Part shown: positions 3,263-16,765 of the stretch, in pieces
Position numbering within the stretch: position 1 is the first letter of the stretch
How the letters are laid out: each line of letters begins with the position of its first letter
Source of the DNA: a virus
Virus record (IMG/VR): IMGVR_UViG_3300045988_087586
Length of the DNA: 18,704 nt
Reading direction: 5' to 3' (one strand)
Translations under genes and position numbers: made by a program
The notes under the pieces: generated by a model
Told to the model about the DNA's origin: nothing
The model's database searches: none
What the model saw: the letters and a program-made list of their open reading frames with translations, nothing else

Positions 3263-3288
3263 GAGAGCACCCAAAATTGGGTGCTCTC
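3263..3288 (+). promoter_or_regulatory. Perfect 10-bp stem-loop (GAGAGCACCC-AAAATT-GGGTGCTCTC) between the SSB and TP genes
   Basis: Read directly from the sequence. There is no U-tract on either strand, so it is not a canonical terminator. It could be an attenuator, a processing site or a 5' stabiliser. Confidence 0.5.
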
Positions 3289-3312
3289 ACCATCTTAAAA
3301 GGGGTACGCTAT

Positions 3313-4284
3313 ATGTCTCGCAGTCGGAAACGAAAGCACGTCAAGGCACGTCAAGCCGCGCAGGCACGCGCCGCGCGTAACGTCGAACAGCTCGGAGCCT
3401 ACTCTCACTCAAATCTTGCAAAAACCGCTGATAAACAGTTGGTCAATATCGCGAAAACCCTAGGCAAGGAATGGGAGCGGCAGAAGAGACAGACCATAGC
3501 GGAAGCGAAAGCAACCCAATACCACGCCAACGCCGTGGAAAAACCGACAAAAAAAGACATCATGTTTGCCCAACGCACCCCTATAACGAATGCTCAGATA
3601 GAAGCGGAACCCGTGGCGAAACGGCGCAAGCTGCTCAGACAGCAGCAGCGGAAAATCAATGCGGCACGACGGAAGATCAACGACTGGAACCGCGAACGGG
3701 CAATGCCGAAGCGTAGCGTGTACGATCAGCGTATAGAAGAACTTGCTGGAACTACTGGCGAGGGTTTTGGGCGTAATCAAATCATCCCGTCAAAACTTAC
3801 GGACTTTTTGCAAATGACAAATGTTCTGAGCGACGAGGCGTTCGTGCGCGGTCAATTGGAAAGCGGACACCGTAATGAACTGCGTGAACAGATACATGAT
3901 GCCGCCGAGATCTTGGGATTGCGCACCGAGCAAAAAAAACATAAGACGCCCAAAAAGCAAGGGAGGGGTAGGCGAACCGAAGATCTATACGGCGAGCGTG
4001 AGTGGCCGTCTTACATGCCTCATGGACGCTACGAGATTTTTGAAAAAATCTTGGCCACCTCGCTCGGCTCGAAACGGTTGAAACGATTCCGCAGTCTATC
4101 CGCCGCACAGAAACGCGCTTTCATCGAACAGACGGACGCCCCCCGTATCGTTTTTGATTGGACGGTGTATGACCCCGTTCGACACGGTTTTACGTCGATT
4201 TTCAGGGGCAACAGTGAGGGGTATCAGCGCTCACGACGGCAGTTCGACCGCTGGATGGAGGAAGCCGGCGCGCTGGAAAAGTAG
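3313..4284 (+). CDS. Candidate terminal protein (replication primer), 323 aa, very basic
   Basis: ATG at 3313 follows AAAAGGGG. The ORF-track TTG start at 3277 lies inside the hairpin. The gene sits immediately upstream of the protein-primed polymerase as in phi29. Its N-terminus MSRSRKRKHVKARQ is like phi29 TP MARSPRIR... No catalytic motif is expected, so the call is positional. Confidence 0.6.
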   Translation: MSRSRKRKHVKARQAAQARAARNVEQLGAYSHSNLAKTADKQLVNIAKTLGKEWERQKRQTIAEAKATQYHANAVEKPTKKDIMFAQRTPITNAQIEAEPVAKRRKLLRQQQRKINAARRKINDWNRERAMPKRSVYDQRIEELAGTTGEGFGRNQIIPSKLTDFLQMTNVLSDEAFVRGQLESGHRNELREQIHDAAEILGLRTEQKKHKTPKKQGRGRRTEDLYGEREWPSYMPHGRYEIFEKILATSLGSKRLKRFRSLSAAQKRAFIEQTDAPRIVFDWTVYDPVRHGFTSIFRGNSEGYQRSRRQFDRWMEEAGALEK

Positions 4285-4311: not shown

Positions 4312-5766
4312 ATGGAATTGCATGACGATAAAAGGGTAGGCTTGTGGTGTGCGGATAATGTCGTACGATTTACGGACGGTACCGCATTGCATGACATTAT
4401 CGCACCCAGTCGGTTGCTGGCGTCCATCATGACGGGAGGCAAACTCACCGTCTACACGACTAACCCCGATATTTTAGACCCTTTTATCGCACATGTCGTA
4501 CACGTACTCCCTCATAATGAGCATAATGCAAATCTGAGCTGGGATGCGATAATATCCCAAAAAGGCAAATTTTTTAGTTTTACCGTGCGTATCGACCGCG
4601 AGAATTCCGCACGCTTTTTCGATATATCGAATCTTTTGCGCGAAAACTGCAAGCTTACCATGACTGACACTCAACTGCTCACTATTTTGCGCGAATACGA
4701 TCAGCGCGGCTTGTGTAAGATCACAGCCGGTGGGGCGAGTATGGAGGCTTTCGCATCCGGAGAATGGAGATGGTATTACGACAAATTCCCCCAGCTCGAA
4801 CCGGACGCGAAAAAATCATTGCATGATGCCTATATCGGCGGCTTTATGGTTGCCAAAGAGGGGGCATATGGGAGGGCTATCGATGTTGACTGTAATTCCA
4901 TGTATCCGTCCATATTGCGAGACGAATGGCTTCCATGGGGAGTACCGGAACCGTACGAAGGACGATACGTGCAAGATGATGATATGCCGTTGCATTGTGA
5001 TGAAATCACGTTCCGCGCGGAATTGAAACCGGACGGATACCCTTTTTTATTAGACAATCGTAGTGTCTACGGACTTAACCGACTCACCAGTACGCGCGGC
5101 TATATCACGCTCGTGCTCACCGATATCGACCAGCAATTGCTCTACGAGAATTACGATGTAAGCGTCTACCGGCATGTGAGGGGGTGGAAGTTCCGGCGTT
5201 CCAAGGGGTTTTTCCGCTCGTTTATCGACGAATGGGGTGAATTGAAGCAGCATGCGACGGGGGAGCGTAGACAAATGGCGAAACTGATTATGAACGCACT
5301 CGTAGGGAAAATGGCGAGTCTGCCCAAAGGAGTCGTCATGCTCCCCTTATCCAAAGACGGCATAACCCTAGACTGGGACATTGCCCAGCGCGAAGAGTCG
5401 AATCTGAAAACCGACTATCTGCCAGTACCAGTATGGGTCAACGCTTATGCACGACGCAAACTCGTGGACGTATGCCACGCCAACGCCACCCGACTCTTGT
5501 ACGCCAACACGGACGGGTGTATCCTATCCGGCTGGGAGCCGGTGAAGTCATGCGAAATCCACCCTACCGAACTGGGCAGATGGAAAATCGCAGCCCGATA
5601 TGAAAGGCTCACTATTTTAGGCATGAACCGATATCAAGGGTGGAGGGATGATGGCGGGGTTGATATCTGCATGGCCGGAAGCCAATTTACGCAGCCCATT
5701 CCTTATGGAAAGTTCCGGCACGGCGTGCGAGTCATGGATGATTACGGTACATTGGTCATGTTATGA
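4312..5766 (+). CDS. Family-B DNA polymerase, protein-primed phi29 type, compact (484 aa)
   Basis: Blocks matching recalled phi29 polymerase: KITAGGASMEAF (RMTAGSDSLKGF), AYIGGF (AYRGGF), DVDCNSMYPS (motif A, DVNSLYPA), LPWGVPEPYEGRYVQDDDMPLH (LPYGEPIVFEGKYVWDEDYPLH), FIDEWGE...AKLIMNALVGK (motif B), LLYANTDG (motif C). Confidence 0.93.
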   Translation: MELHDDKRVGLWCADNVVRFTDGTALHDIIAPSRLLASIMTGGKLTVYTTNPDILDPFIAHVVHVLPHNEHNANLSWDAIISQKGKFFSFTVRIDRENSARFFDISNLLRENCKLTMTDTQLLTILREYDQRGLCKITAGGASMEAFASGEWRWYYDKFPQLEPDAKKSLHDAYIGGFMVAKEGAYGRAIDVDCNSMYPSILRDEWLPWGVPEPYEGRYVQDDDMPLHCDEITFRAELKPDGYPFLLDNRSVYGLNRLTSTRGYITLVLTDIDQQLLYENYDVSVYRHVRGWKFRRSKGFFRSFIDEWGELKQHATGERRQMAKLIMNALVGKMASLPKGVVMLPLSKDGITLDWDIAQREESNLKTDYLPVPVWVNAYARRKLVDVCHANATRLLYANTDGCILSGWEPVKSCEIHPTELGRWKIAARYERLTILGMNRYQGWRDDGGVDICMAGSQFTQPIPYGKFRHGVRVMDDYGTLVML

Positions 5767-5772
5767 TATACT
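5764..5772 (+). promoter_or_regulatory. Extended -10-like element TGaTATACT overlapping the polymerase stop codon
   Basis: TGATATACT. It would start a transcript near 5779. Confidence 0.3.
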
Positions 5773-5778
5773 TTGTCT

Positions 5779-5941
5779 TTCGAGCGTTGACTTTCGACTG
5801 GGAATGACATAGGTTGGACTGCCTCGGCTGAGAATGCCGCCGACCATGATTTGCTACTATGGTGGTAGTGCCCTACGATTTTCGACTCGCGCTCACATAA
5901 GACGATTCAGACCCTCCGTGATTGGAGGGTCATTTTATTTT
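5779..5941 (+). ncRNA. Candidate structured non-coding RNA (packaging-RNA-like by position and size); alternatively the 3' UTR of the early operon
   Basis: About 160 nt run from the promoter-like element to the intrinsic terminator with no ORF. Local helices: GGTTGG(5812-5817)/CCGACC(5840-5845) enclosing CGGC/GCCG; CTACTA(5854-5859)/TGGTAG(5863-5868); a closing helix GAGCG(5782-5786)/CGCTC(5890-5894). A TTTCGA(C/G) motif occurs three times. Confidence 0.3.
5910..5941 (+). terminator. Rho-independent terminator at the early/late boundary
   Basis: GACCCTCC-GTGATT-GGAGGGTC followed by ATTTTATTTT. Confidence 0.8.
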
Positions 5942-5951
5942 GCTTGTGGCA

Positions 5952-5960
5952 TGATATAAT
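5952..5960 (+). promoter_or_regulatory. Candidate late promoter, extended -10 TGaTATAAT without a -35
   Basis: Perfect TGnTATAAT 36 nt upstream of the scaffold gene, immediately after the terminator. Confidence 0.5.
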
Positions 5961-5995
5961 TTTAGCGGAAACATTGCCAATAGATAGGAGCTTGC

Positions 5996-6271
5996 ATGGC
6001 AGACCCAAACAATGAGAGCGACGAAAACACCACCCCGCCGCCAACCGAAGAAGAGAAGCAGACTGAAACCGTCGATGACGAAATCAAGCCAAAAGAGCCG
6101 GAACCGGAGCCCGATCAGCCGGACGTGAGCGCACGACTTGACAGCATTGAAAAGGAATTGGCCGCGCTCAAGGCCATGATGGACATACTCGGCTACACTG
6201 ACCCTACCCCGTCCGACAATGACGGTGACGGTGACGAAACGCACGAGTCCATCGAAGATCTGTTCGACTAA
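5996..6271 (+). CDS. Scaffolding protein (phi29 gp7-like position), 91 aa, highly acidic
   Basis: SD ATAGGAG. The product is a short acidic protein rich in Asp, Glu and Pro, encoded directly upstream of the capsid gene. Confidence 0.65.
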   Translation: MADPNNESDENTTPPPTEEEKQTETVDDEIKPKEPEPEPDQPDVSARLDSIEKELAALKAMMDILGYTDPTPSDNDGDGDETHESIEDLFD

Positions 6272-8008: not shown

Positions 8009-8035
8009 TCGGTGACAGACAACGACAGGTAGAAT

Positions 8036-8073
8036 AGGTGCGAGGAGATAATCCTCGCACCTATTATTTATTT
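8036..8073 (+). terminator. Rho-independent terminator after the capsid gene
   Basis: Perfect 11-bp stem AGGTGCGAGGA-GATAA-TCCTCGCACCT followed by ATTATTTATTT. Confidence 0.8.
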
Positions 8074-10323: not shown

Positions 10324-10331
10324 TTGGATAT

Positions 10332-10369
10332 AATGGAGAGAGCATATTAACTTTCTCCATTATTTTTTT
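10332..10369 (+). terminator. Rho-independent terminator after the tail-knob gene
   Basis: AATGGAGAGAG-CATATTAA-CTTTCTCCATT (11 bp including one G-U pair) followed by A-T7. Confidence 0.85.
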
Positions 10370-10381
10370 AGGACGGTGACT

Positions 10382-11320
10382 ATGGGTAAACGTAATAATG
10401 CGCGCAAGGCCGCACACTGGGATAATCAGAGCGTTTTAGGCTCGATGTGGGGCAATTTGAATCTGCCCGAAATGCGGCAATCGCTCAGAATCAATCAGTA
10501 CATGAAATTGATTGAAATGCTGGCCGTATCACGTTTCAAATGGATTAATCTACCCCCATACATTGATGAGCGTTATCTTGAGCTAACACTTTTTGAAAAT
10601 GGCTTAGCCCTCTTTTTTCCCGACAAACGCAAGGGCTTGAACCGTTTTATGGTCACTTCCGGCAACATTGGCGGTGTAAACAATTACAATAATCCAACCA
10701 GCTTCCAGCCGGTAGCTACGAACTATTCCCACCCGCAGGTCGGGAGCAAGGAATGCGTGCCCATTTGGGACAATCAATTGCGCTGCACTATGATCGACGT
10801 CATGTGGAATTATGCCACACGGCTCGCCATCGCAGACCGCGCCTTAGATGTCAATTTGGACAATATCAGCGTGCCGTTGATTATCGCCACGTCCGAAACC
10901 AACAAACTCACCGCCCAAAATTTGATGAAAGCGAGAGAAGACGGCGACCCCTACATTTACACGTACGATTCGGCGGACATTACCGGCATGTTCCAAACAT
11001 TCCCCAACGTCACCCCCTTTCTCGCGGACAAGATCATCACCACGAAAACGCAGATATGGAACGAGTTGGTCAATTATCTCGGCATTGACAATTCGACCAC
11101 GGAAAAAAAGGAAAGATTGCTGGAAAGCGAAGTGACGGCAGGCAATAGCCGTACGAACGTTTTCCGCCTGAGCTATCTCAAGGCAAGGCAGCAGGCGTGC
11201 GACACGATTAACCGACTGTGGCCGCAAATGGCCGACTCGGGATACCCTATCGGCATCGAATGGAACGACACCACGTCCGGCGGTCTCTTGGACGTGGATG
11301 GCAACAAAGAGGAGGAATAA
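10382..11320 (+). CDS. Portal / upper collar connector (phi29 gp10-like)
   Basis: [23 protein letters not shown] resembles gp10 [50 protein letters not shown]...[15 protein letters not shown] resembles [27 protein letters not shown]...LKSREEACEKINELY. The start could be ATG 10382 or GTG 10376. Confidence 0.93.
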   Translation: [312 protein letters not shown]

Positions 11321-15697: not shown

Positions 15698-16765
15698 ATG
15701 GCATTACAGACATTGGCCGAAGATGACTACTATGATCTGCACAATCTGCTCACCCGTAACGCGCCGTGGAATTTCGTGATCGGCGCGCGCGGCCTAGGCA
15801 AAACGTTTGCAGCGAAAAGATACGGAATCAAGGAATATGTCAAAAACGGCCACGAGTTCATCTACCTCAGGCGCACGGACGTGGAACAGCATCGTAAGGA
15901 AACATTCTTCAAAGACATTCAAGAGTTCTTTCCTTCGTACGAGTTTCGCGTCAATGGCGAAAAGGGACAATTGCATAAGACTTCGTGGGATGAAAAGGAT
16001 TGGCGGACATGCTGCTATTTCGTCGCACTATCTCAGGCGGGCGGGCTAAAATCGGTAGCCTACCCTAAAGTGCACTTGATTATTTTCGACGAAATCTTTC
16101 CCGACAATCTACGTTTTTTAAGCAATGAGGTAAATTCGTTTTCCGAGTTTTACAATACTGTTGACCGTTGGCAAGATAGAACAAAAGTACTGTTTTTATC
16201 CAATGCCGTGCAAAAAGCGAATCCGTATTTCGCGAAATACCGGCTGGACATTGGTTCCCAGCAAGCCAACCAGCAACAATACAAACTCTATTGCGGGGGG
16301 TTCGTATGTCTCGAATTGGCGGATTACGGTGGATTCTCAGCCAAAGTCGCGCATTCCAAGTTCGGCAGATTCCTAGAACAGTACGATGGCGACTATGCCG
16401 ACTATGCCATACGCAACAAATTCCGCGACGAATCGGACACGCTACTAGCACCCATTCCTAGTGACGGTGAATTGTCTTATATTCTAGACACTACAGACTA
16501 TGCACGTTTTGGCATATGGGCCTCCGTTTCGGAACGTGACGGACACGTTTCACAATATGTTTCACGACGCATCCCCAAAGACAACACCCGCCCCATCTAC
16601 ACGCTAGACCCCAACCATGTTGACGAAAAAACATGGTACGTCAAAAAGTCGGATGATATTATAAGACGGCTCACCACCGGCTATAGACTTGGTAAAATAA
16701 GATTCGATGATTCACAGGTCAAGGCCGATTTCGGACTGATCATCGGCGAATTATTAGGAAAATAG
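15698..16765 (+). CDS. DNA encapsidation ATPase (phi29 gp16-like)
   Basis: WNFVIGARGLGKTFAAK (Walker A; gp16 has LNFVIGARGIGKSYAMK), GHEFIYLRR, HLIIFDEI (Walker B), FLSNAVQKANPYF, KIRFDDSQVK. SD GGAGGTG. Confidence 0.95.
   Translation: MALQTLAEDDYYDLHNLLTRNAPWNFVIGARGLGKTFAAKRYGIKEYVKNGHEFIYLRRTDVEQHRKETFFKDIQEFFPSYEFRVNGEKGQLHKTSWDEKDWRTCCYFVALSQAGGLKSVAYPKVHLIIFDEIFPDNLRFLSNEVNSFSEFYNTVDRWQDRTKVLFLSNAVQKANPYFAKYRLDIGSQQANQQQYKLYCGGFVCLELADYGGFSAKVAHSKFGRFLEQYDGDYADYAIRNKFRDESDTLLAPIPSDGELSYILDTTDYARFGIWASVSERDGHVSQYVSRRIPKDNTRPIYTLDPNHVDEKTWYVKKSDDIIRRLTTGYRLGKIRFDDSQVKADFGLIIGELLGK

Follow-up and report, generated by a model that had tools for sequence, protein, structure and literature searches.

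The virus record IMGVR_UViG_3300045988_087586, a stretch of 18,704 nt that is called the window here as a whole, is the 18.7-kb, near-complete genome of a phi29-like podophage of Bifidobacterium. Between its DNA polymerase gene and a 91-aa scaffold-like open reading frame (ORF) lies a gap, 5767-5995, that carries an RNA gene. The RNA has a fold maintained across relatives, and a bulge in one of its arms pairs with the loop of another. The best reading of 5775-5941 on the plus strand is that it encodes a stand-alone, structured, non-coding RNA of about 167 nt, running from a putative promoter to a terminator. We consider it probable that this is a diverged motor RNA of the type of the phi29 packaging RNA (pRNA), because the architectures match, the RNA is restricted to phi29-like phages, and it repeatedly adjoins the gene for the gp16 packaging ATPase. 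An earlier note on this DNA had advanced a pRNA-like candidate in the gap, and the covariation, the pairing of the bulge with the D loop and the match of the consensus topologies support that proposal.

The elements of the transcription unit, and the promoter-like element that follows it, are these:

5759-5767, + strand: extended -10-like element TGTTATGAT, overlapping the polymerase stop codon (5764-5766)
5775-5903, + strand: domain I, 129 nt, from RNAalifold and pair counts over 52-54 homologs
5775-5779/5899-5903, + strand: closing arm, GUCUU/AAGAC
5782-5787/5889-5894, + strand: closing arm, GAGCGU/GCGCUC
5794-5796/5876-5878 and 5800-5802/5871-5873, + strand: closing arm, 3-bp segments leading to the three-way junction
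5808-5848, + strand: C/E arm, made up of the C helix, a 5'-side bulge and the E hairpin
5808-5810/5846-5848, + strand: C helix, CAU/AUG
5812-5817/5840-5845, + strand: C helix, GGUUGG/CCGACC
5818-5824, + strand: bulge ACUGCCU, 7 nt, on the 5' side only
5820-5824, + strand: bulge bases complementary to the D loop, UGCCU here and UGCCA in most relatives
5825-5839, + strand: E hairpin, CGGC-UGAGAAU-GCCG, with a 4-bp stem (5825-5828/5836-5839) and a 7-nt loop
5852-5870, + strand: D hairpin, with stem 5852-5859/5863-5870 and loop UGG (5860-5862)
5860-5864, + strand: D-loop partner UGGUG, pairing with the bulge
5904-5941, + strand: 6-nt linker, intrinsic terminator hairpin (5910-5931) and U tract, from the terminator scan
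5952-5960, + strand: exact extended -10 TGATATAAT, downstream of the RNA terminator and invariant in relatives

The helices named in the earlier note all exist, and compensatory changes preserve them in relatives. From the E stem, the 3' strand continues unbroken into the C helix, as in the consensus of RF00044, the Rfam model of pRNA, and the D hairpin abuts the 3' strand of the closing arm with zero linker. A folding check bore out the structured fold: domain I together with the terminator folds on the plus strand at -56.6 kcal/mol (z = -3.2), and none of 200 shuffled sequences folded as well. We take the plus strand to be the RNA strand because G-U pairs are frequent; the minus strand was rejected, as it folds worse and many of the G-U pairs would turn into C-A.

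The relatives of the window are Bifidobacterium phage BP1 (about 82% identity over 80% of the length) and the phages BD811P1-3 (76% identity for BD811P2). An exact 18-mer of the E hairpin retrieved 62 IMG/VR loci, about 55 of which are true homologs. The alignment used here, A4, comprises 54 distinct sequences, consisting of the IMG/VR homologs together with BP1, the BD811P phages and metagenome contigs. Explicit pair counting over A4 revealed that 96.8% of the cells are paired and that 17 pairs carry changes on both sides; no shuffle out of 500 reached any of the observed measures, and slid controls were at most 53% paired. The helix covariation that the earlier note had proposed to look for in relatives is therefore evident. 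In the C helix, one pair is UA in 49 members and CG in 4, and another is CG in 46, UG in 6 and UA in 1, while all six outer pairs of the D stem show changes on both sides. The covariance model R1 has a single match in the window (5773-5905, + strand; 139.8 bits, E = 3.8e-33). The RNA region is conserved about as much as the adjacent coding DNA.

The earlier note had also proposed a search for complementary loop pairs, and the bulge on the 5' side of the E hairpin forms such a pair with the D loop. In most members the bulge reads UGCCA and is complementary to the D loop plus its closing bases, UGGCG; where columns 51-55 of A4 meet columns 99-95, 98.9% of the cells are paired. At the central position 42 sequences have G-C, 6 have A-U and another 6 have G-U, and A-C never occurs. 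Because the D-stem partner of the central loop base is nearly always G, the hairpin itself does not explain this correlation between bulge and loop. A one-sided metagenome scan that selected the A variant of the bulge returned a U in the loop of every true homolog, and the sister sequences L045 (G-C) and L203 (A-U) mark an independent switch of the central pair. Since the C and E helices are themselves supported, the pairing must be a pseudoknot or a kissing contact. Thus, covariation maintains the Watson-Crick complementarity of CE bulge and D loop, one of the features by which the functional class of pRNA is recognized.

The consensus topology of R1 agrees with that of RF00044 element by element:

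Closing arm, 5' strand: 28 nt in the window RNA, 26 nt in RF00044
C helix: 7 bp in the window RNA, 9 bp in RF00044
Bulge, 5' side only: 7 nt in the window RNA, 9 nt in RF00044
E stem: 4 bp in the window RNA, 4 bp in RF00044
E loop: 7 nt in the window RNA, 6 nt in RF00044
E stem to the 3' strand of C: no break in the window RNA, no break in RF00044
C/D junction linker: 5 nt in the window RNA, 3 nt in RF00044
D to closing arm linker: 0 nt in the window RNA, 0 nt in RF00044
Pairing bases next to the E stem: GCCA in the bulge and UGGC in the D loop of the window RNA, AACC in the bulge and GGUU in the D loop of RF00044, with a CC/GG core in both

The domain I topology of pRNA, a further feature of the functional class, is thus present in a consensus that covariation supports. 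A loose descriptor of this architecture gave 7-30 loci per genome and was replaced by a strict version. The strict descriptor, whose statistics are only indicative as it was designed after both structures were known, matches once each in the window (5812-5868, + strand), at the left end of phi29 (where the match is the pRNA), in BP1 and in BD811P2, matches 48 of the 52 family members, and finds 0.085 loci per simulated 18.7-kb strand.

RNAs of the same layout occur in other phi29-like lineages. BadAztec and BadAargau, phages of honeybee Bifidobacterium whose gp16 is 44% identical to that of the window, carry one at the same position, with compensatory changes in two helices. The E hairpin of BadAztec, CGUA-UUAAGU-UACG, led to three uncultured phi29-like phages, L331, L440 and L427. 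The gp16 proteins of these four phages are only 24-36% identical, and the E hairpin, which is identical in all of them, must therefore be under strong constraint; its loop, UUAAGU, is one base off the UUGAGU of phi29. Among the 54 IMG/VR loci that hold the E-hairpin 15-mer, five have a phi29-type gp16 or major capsid protein (MCP), and all five show the architecture, as against 1 of the other 49. The complements of bulge and D loop vary among BadAztec, L331, L440 and L427 (ACC/GGU, GCC/GGC, ACCA/UGGU and GCA/UGC), the chance of at least three such pairs being 10-19% per lineage. The unconstrained minimum-energy fold of the L440 RNA has the topology of pRNA, with a 3-nt C/D linker and 0-nt linkers elsewhere. 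The RNAs that share the E hairpin CGUAUUAAGUUACG and adjoin the gp16 ATPase gene are located as follows:

L440, 2842-3024
L331, 9040-9265
L427, 7534-7700

The RNA immediately precedes gp16 in L331 and L440, and in L440 its 3' end overlaps the ribosome-binding region of the ATPase gene. The order is reversed in L427, where the RNA comes right after gp16 and nothing but a terminator and a convergent polymerase gene follows. A search for relatives with the L331 ATPase returned L331 alone.

With regard to transcription, a TGnTATAAT-like element is conserved 7-8 nt ahead of the closing helix. The earlier note had placed an extended -10 at TGATATACT (5764-5772); a promoter-like element is indeed present, but the conserved one is TGTTATGAT at 5759-5767 and not only TGATATACT. 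It aligns to an exact TGCTATAAT in BP1, BD811P1/P2 and BadAargau2, and its counterpart in BadAztec1 is TGCTATAGT. From these alignments we infer that TGTTATGAT acts as a promoter, which would place the 5' end of the RNA at about 5775. At the other end, the clean intrinsic terminator described earlier (stem 5910-5931, T run to 5941) is confirmed and ranks second strongest in the terminator scan of the window. Its region occupies the place of pRNA domain II. All 52 homologs form the hairpin in their minimum-energy folds, only 2 of them with any pairing to domain I, and across these homologs domain I and the terminator are predicted to fold independently. The terminator stem covaries, and its loop, GUGAUUG (5918-5924), is invariant in all of the at least 52 members. 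This invariant loop parallels the conserved, unexplained domain II of pRNA and suggests a sequence-specific partner. Downstream, TGATATAAT is a putative late promoter for the scaffold-like and capsid genes. Exact TGnTATAAT matches number four in the window (1084, 3232, 5952 and 15577), all on the plus strand and all intergenic; the first is in the early region, and the others precede a terminal-protein-sized ORF, the scaffold-like ORF and the ATPase gene, respectively. The phage apparently depends on extended -10 promoters.

If the RNA is a pRNA-type motor component, it would be transcribed from the extended -10 overlapping the polymerase stop codon and would end at the intrinsic terminator. 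The end of the bulge, GCC(A), may then pair with (U)GGC of the D loop between neighbouring molecules, as in phi29, so that an RNA ring could assemble at the prohead's portal vertex and be contacted there by the basic N-termini of the portal. The gp16-type ATPase would dock on the long closing arms to package the protein-primed genome. That the RNA pairs between molecules, binds the prohead and takes part in packaging is what we infer by analogy with phi29, and the portal and the gp16-type ATPase are the presumed partners of the RNA. Basic portal N-termini occur in the window family, where the window portal begins MGKRNNARK as had been noted, and in BadAztec, and they lend weak support to the pRNA-type reading; the portal N-termini of LE1-1 and Mendel are not basic.

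Several observations weigh against this assignment. The RF00044 model, the scan with which had been proposed earlier, gives no match in 5650-6050 of the window even at E <= 10 (gathering threshold 100 bits), nor at E <= 10 in BadAztec1, L331 and L440, while the phi29 pRNA, the positive control, is found at 145.4 bits. The window RNA is not a member of the RF00044 sequence family; as there is no match, homology to pRNA is not shown and convergence is possible. R1, for its part, does not detect the corresponding regions of BadAztec, L331 or the Actinomyces phage Av-1, so the subfamilies are connected through architecture, context and short motifs. The segment 5794-5796 has two competing partners, and the closing arm is more interrupted than the A helix of pRNA. 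In BadAztec, L331 and L440 the next gene follows the RNA without an intervening promoter, which makes the RNA there part of an mRNA leader. The asccphi28 motor indicates that phi29-like motors can work without pRNA (PMC7823558), and the strict descriptor was, as said, designed with both structures in hand. Finally, the sequence does not separate an intermolecular kissing contact from an intramolecular pseudoknot. One rival is that the RNA acts in trans, with its bulge-loop pairing as an intramolecular pseudoknot, and serves a purpose unrelated to packaging (in host takeover, as a decoy against host defences, in replication or as an assembly chaperone), its likeness to pRNA being convergent or superficial. 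Covariation proves pairing and not pairing between molecules, and arms of these lengths (about 9 bp of C up to the bulge, 6-8 bp of D) could lie side by side. Together with the silence of RF00044, the structured RNAs of unassigned role in the equivalent gap of Arthrobacter and Curtobacterium phages also speak for such a role. We nevertheless regard it as unlikely, in view of an element-by-element match with pRNA that extends to the 0-nt junction of D with the closing arm and to the CC/GG kissing bases, of the restriction to phi29-like phages (5/5 phi29-type 15-mer loci versus 1/49 others), and of the adjacency to gp16 in three lineages.

Slightly more doubtful is the possibility that the RNA works in cis as a leader of the morphogenesis genes, be it an attenuator, a riboswitch, an antitermination element of the put/EAR type, or an operator for the ATPase or another late protein. 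The RNA does lie at the early/late boundary, flanked by a putative promoter and a terminator, strong terminators stand further down the late operon (8033-8065 and 10330-10363), and in BadAztec, L331 and L440 no more than about 15-30 nt separate the RNA or its 3' hairpin from the start of the next gene (scaffold-like or gp16); the absence of a promoter in between means that read-through is needed there. However, the late genes of the window family have a putative promoter of their own, the invariant exact TGATATAAT, after the terminator. The mutually exclusive pairing of sensor and terminator that marks an attenuator or riboswitch was not found, as domain I and the terminator have no conserved alternative pairing (terminator in 52/52 folds, cross-pairing in 2). 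In L427 the RNA has nothing to regulate downstream, only the terminator and the convergent polymerase gene. Moreover, no Rfam leader, riboswitch or EAR matched above chance: scans of the whole window (gathering threshold) and of the gap (E <= 10) yielded nothing beyond chance-level matches to the terminator hairpin (Phe_leader, ctRNA). Cis action of the put/EAR type is thus compatible with BadAztec, L331 and L440, but not with L427, nor easily with the late promoter of the window. As for a functionless structured 3' untranslated region, or terminator region, of the early operon, the RNA does follow the polymerase gene immediately, in the same orientation, and does end in a terminator. This null is not tenable and has next to no probability in our estimate, given the 17 covarying pairs and the covarying tertiary pairing, a promoter-like element positioned for a start at the first base of the closing helix, conservation about equal to that of flanking coding DNA, a separate putative late promoter after the terminator, and the finding of this architecture where the genes are ordered differently and the RNA adjoins gp16 instead of the polymerase 3' end.

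Some features of the region touch on claims made earlier or stand beside the main subject. The statement that the gap is free of ORFs needs amending, as a 41-codon ORF (5834-5959) exists; it is unconserved, 1-2-nt indels among homologs break its frame, and a coding role was rejected. Conservation among the three TTTCGA(C/G) repeats is limited to the middle copy (5791-5797); there is no repeat family, and with a single conserved copy the repeats were discarded as protein-binding sites. The arguments for a pRNA from these repeats and from genome position are weak. The UCG at 5794-5796 can take part either in a local UCGA-UUU-UCGA-type hairpin (5787-5798) or in the long-range pairing with CGA at 5876-5878; the two alternatives are backed by one compensatory case apiece (L032 versus L045/L203), and on these sequences a conformational switch at this segment is possible. 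In L003 (MT836241, flagged 'UNVERIFIED'), two G-to-A changes within 1929-2064 disrupt a base pair in each of the E and C helices; errors of sequencing or assembly could account for them, as could a defective copy. Two further searches were set aside: an 18-mer scan of genome contigs gave only chance matches in unrelated bacteria, and a viral scan with TGACTGGG...CCCTAC was too unspecific.

All major genes of the window are on the plus strand. Those that bear on the setting of the RNA, identified from protein matches at the Pfam and Protein Data Bank (PDB) level, are:

+ strand: gene for a Phi29-type single-stranded DNA-binding protein (SSB)
4312-5766, + strand: type-B DNA polymerase gene (Pfam DNA_pol_B_2)
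5996-6271, + strand: acidic scaffold-like ORF, 91 aa, preceding the Phi29_MCP capsid gene
+ strand: Phi29_MCP capsid gene and tail knob gene, downstream of the scaffold-like ORF
10376-11320, + strand: portal, gp10 homolog (Pfam Phage_connector, 1.4e-39; PDB 1h5w, 4e-28)
15698-16765, + strand: packaging ATPase, full-length gp16 homolog (Pfam Podovirus_Gp16, 3e-43; PDB 7jqq)

The portal and the ATPase are thus gp10 and gp16 homologs by both Pfam and PDB matches, as the earlier note had held, and the window belongs to a phi29-like phage that has a gp10-type portal and a gp16-type ATPase. Residues 11-341 of the ATPase match 7jqq (phi29 gp16) at 2.8e-35, and the protein also matches 7jq6, of the asccphi28-type motor class, at 2.3e-12. 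In annotated relatives the gap between the polymerase and scaffold-like genes holds zero annotated features, and the BP1 paper mentions no RNA. No terminal-protein family of Pfam matches the ORF in the position of the terminal protein (3277-4284, 335 aa). With 484 aa against about 570 aa in phi29-like relatives, the polymerase is short, and the Pfam model covers residues 137-383 only. Within the late block, the two very strong intrinsic terminators on the plus strand follow the capsid gene (8033-8065) and the tail-knob gene (10330-10363).

Other actinobacterial phages also carry RNAs, annotated or predicted, in comparable settings. In Av-1 (L068, DQ123818.2), the depositors annotated a misc_RNA at 16295-16402 as 'packaging RNA', and this annotation resembles our proposal in claiming a pRNA for an actinobacterial phi29-like phage. 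It is the only earlier claim of a pRNA outside Bacillus phages met in our literature and database searches. The annotation looks spurious and unrelated to the window RNA, as the segment does not fold better than shuffled sequences (z = +0.53), overlaps ORFs on the opposite strand, fails the descriptor and matches neither R1 nor Rfam. In the Arthrobacter phage Mendel (L329, 4934-5105), a conserved structured RNA (z = -6.45) lies between ribbon-helix-helix and scaffold-like genes. Across Mendel and its relatives Swim, Tillums and Anjali (L335-L337), the closing helix shows compensatory changes and CCGG-bulge-CCCC UUGAAU GGGG-CCGG is invariant; Mendel passes the pRNA descriptor and its relatives fail it. 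The extended bulge/D-loop pairing of Mendel is not retained in Tillums, and the Arthrobacter RNAs were not counted as support. In the Curtobacterium phage Penne (L328, 4112-4296), strong structure (z = -4.1) is likewise predicted for the equivalent gap upstream of the scaffold-like gene, with a long hairpin at its end.

On a broader scale, there is about an even chance that these RNAs form a deeply diverged pRNA family, invisible to RF00044, in Bifidobacterium phages of the human gut and the honeybee and in uncultured gut and environmental lineages, often adjoining gp16, and that an RNA ring is ancestral to the phi29-type motor and was later lost in some phages such as asccphi28. If so, pRNA-dependent motors would not be peculiar to Bacillus phages, and the origin of the motor RNA, ancestral or gained in one lineage, would become testable. 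The natural variants could be used to ask which features of pRNA the gp10/gp16 motor needs, and would provide new self-assembling three-way-junction RNAs for RNA nanotechnology. An essential non-coding gene would also be added to the annotation of gut-relevant Bifidobacterium phages. BP1, grown on B. pseudocatenulatum U19, BD811P1-3, grown on B. dentium DA811, and BadAztec exist in culture.

Among known systems, the processive antitermination RNAs (put of HK022 and EAR of Bacillus) are structured, lie after a promoter or between genes, and stand ahead of terminators in long operons; the put RNAs are two simple stem-loops without a three-way junction. The window RNA differs from put and EAR in having no Rfam match and in being followed, after its terminator, by a separate late promoter. 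The likeness to phi29 begins with the phage itself, a small protein-primed podophage with homologs of the gp10 portal and the gp16 ATPase. As in phi29 pRNA, a domain I of about 120-130 nt with a three-way junction is closed by its own ends and followed, after a short linker, by a separate 3' hairpin domain, and the RNA has a putative promoter of its own (PMC5066667, PMC12670572); domains I and II of pRNA fold independently (PMC5066667). In the window, promoter and 3' domain are represented by the conserved -10-like element and the terminator, whereas in three other lineages the RNA is joined to the leader of the next gene. The two RNAs differ in that no similarity is detectable by sequence or covariance model, in the host, here an actinobacterium, and in several details of the fold: the closing arm of the window RNA has larger internal loops and may hold a small extra hairpin, its D loop is only 3 nt (UGG) unless two inner stem pairs open, and its junction linkers are 5 nt, against 1 and 3 nt in phi29 pRNA. 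The earlier note had also drawn a parallel in genome position. It stands insofar as the RNA gene is downstream of the polymerase gene, but the parallel is loose, since the pRNA gene of phi29 lies about 800 nt and several genes further on, at the genome end and with its own promoter A1, and that of the window lies between the polymerase and scaffold-like genes. pRNA has been described as confined to phi29-related Bacillus phages (PMC11476376, PMC5066667), and the latest structure-based survey added only further Bacillus phages (PMC12670572). No sign of a pRNA is seen for asccphi28, whose ATPase assembles into rings unaided (PMC7823558). That phage and the window phage share the same class of small gp16-type ATPase and gp10-type portal, to which the window phage adds a conserved, pRNA-like RNA.

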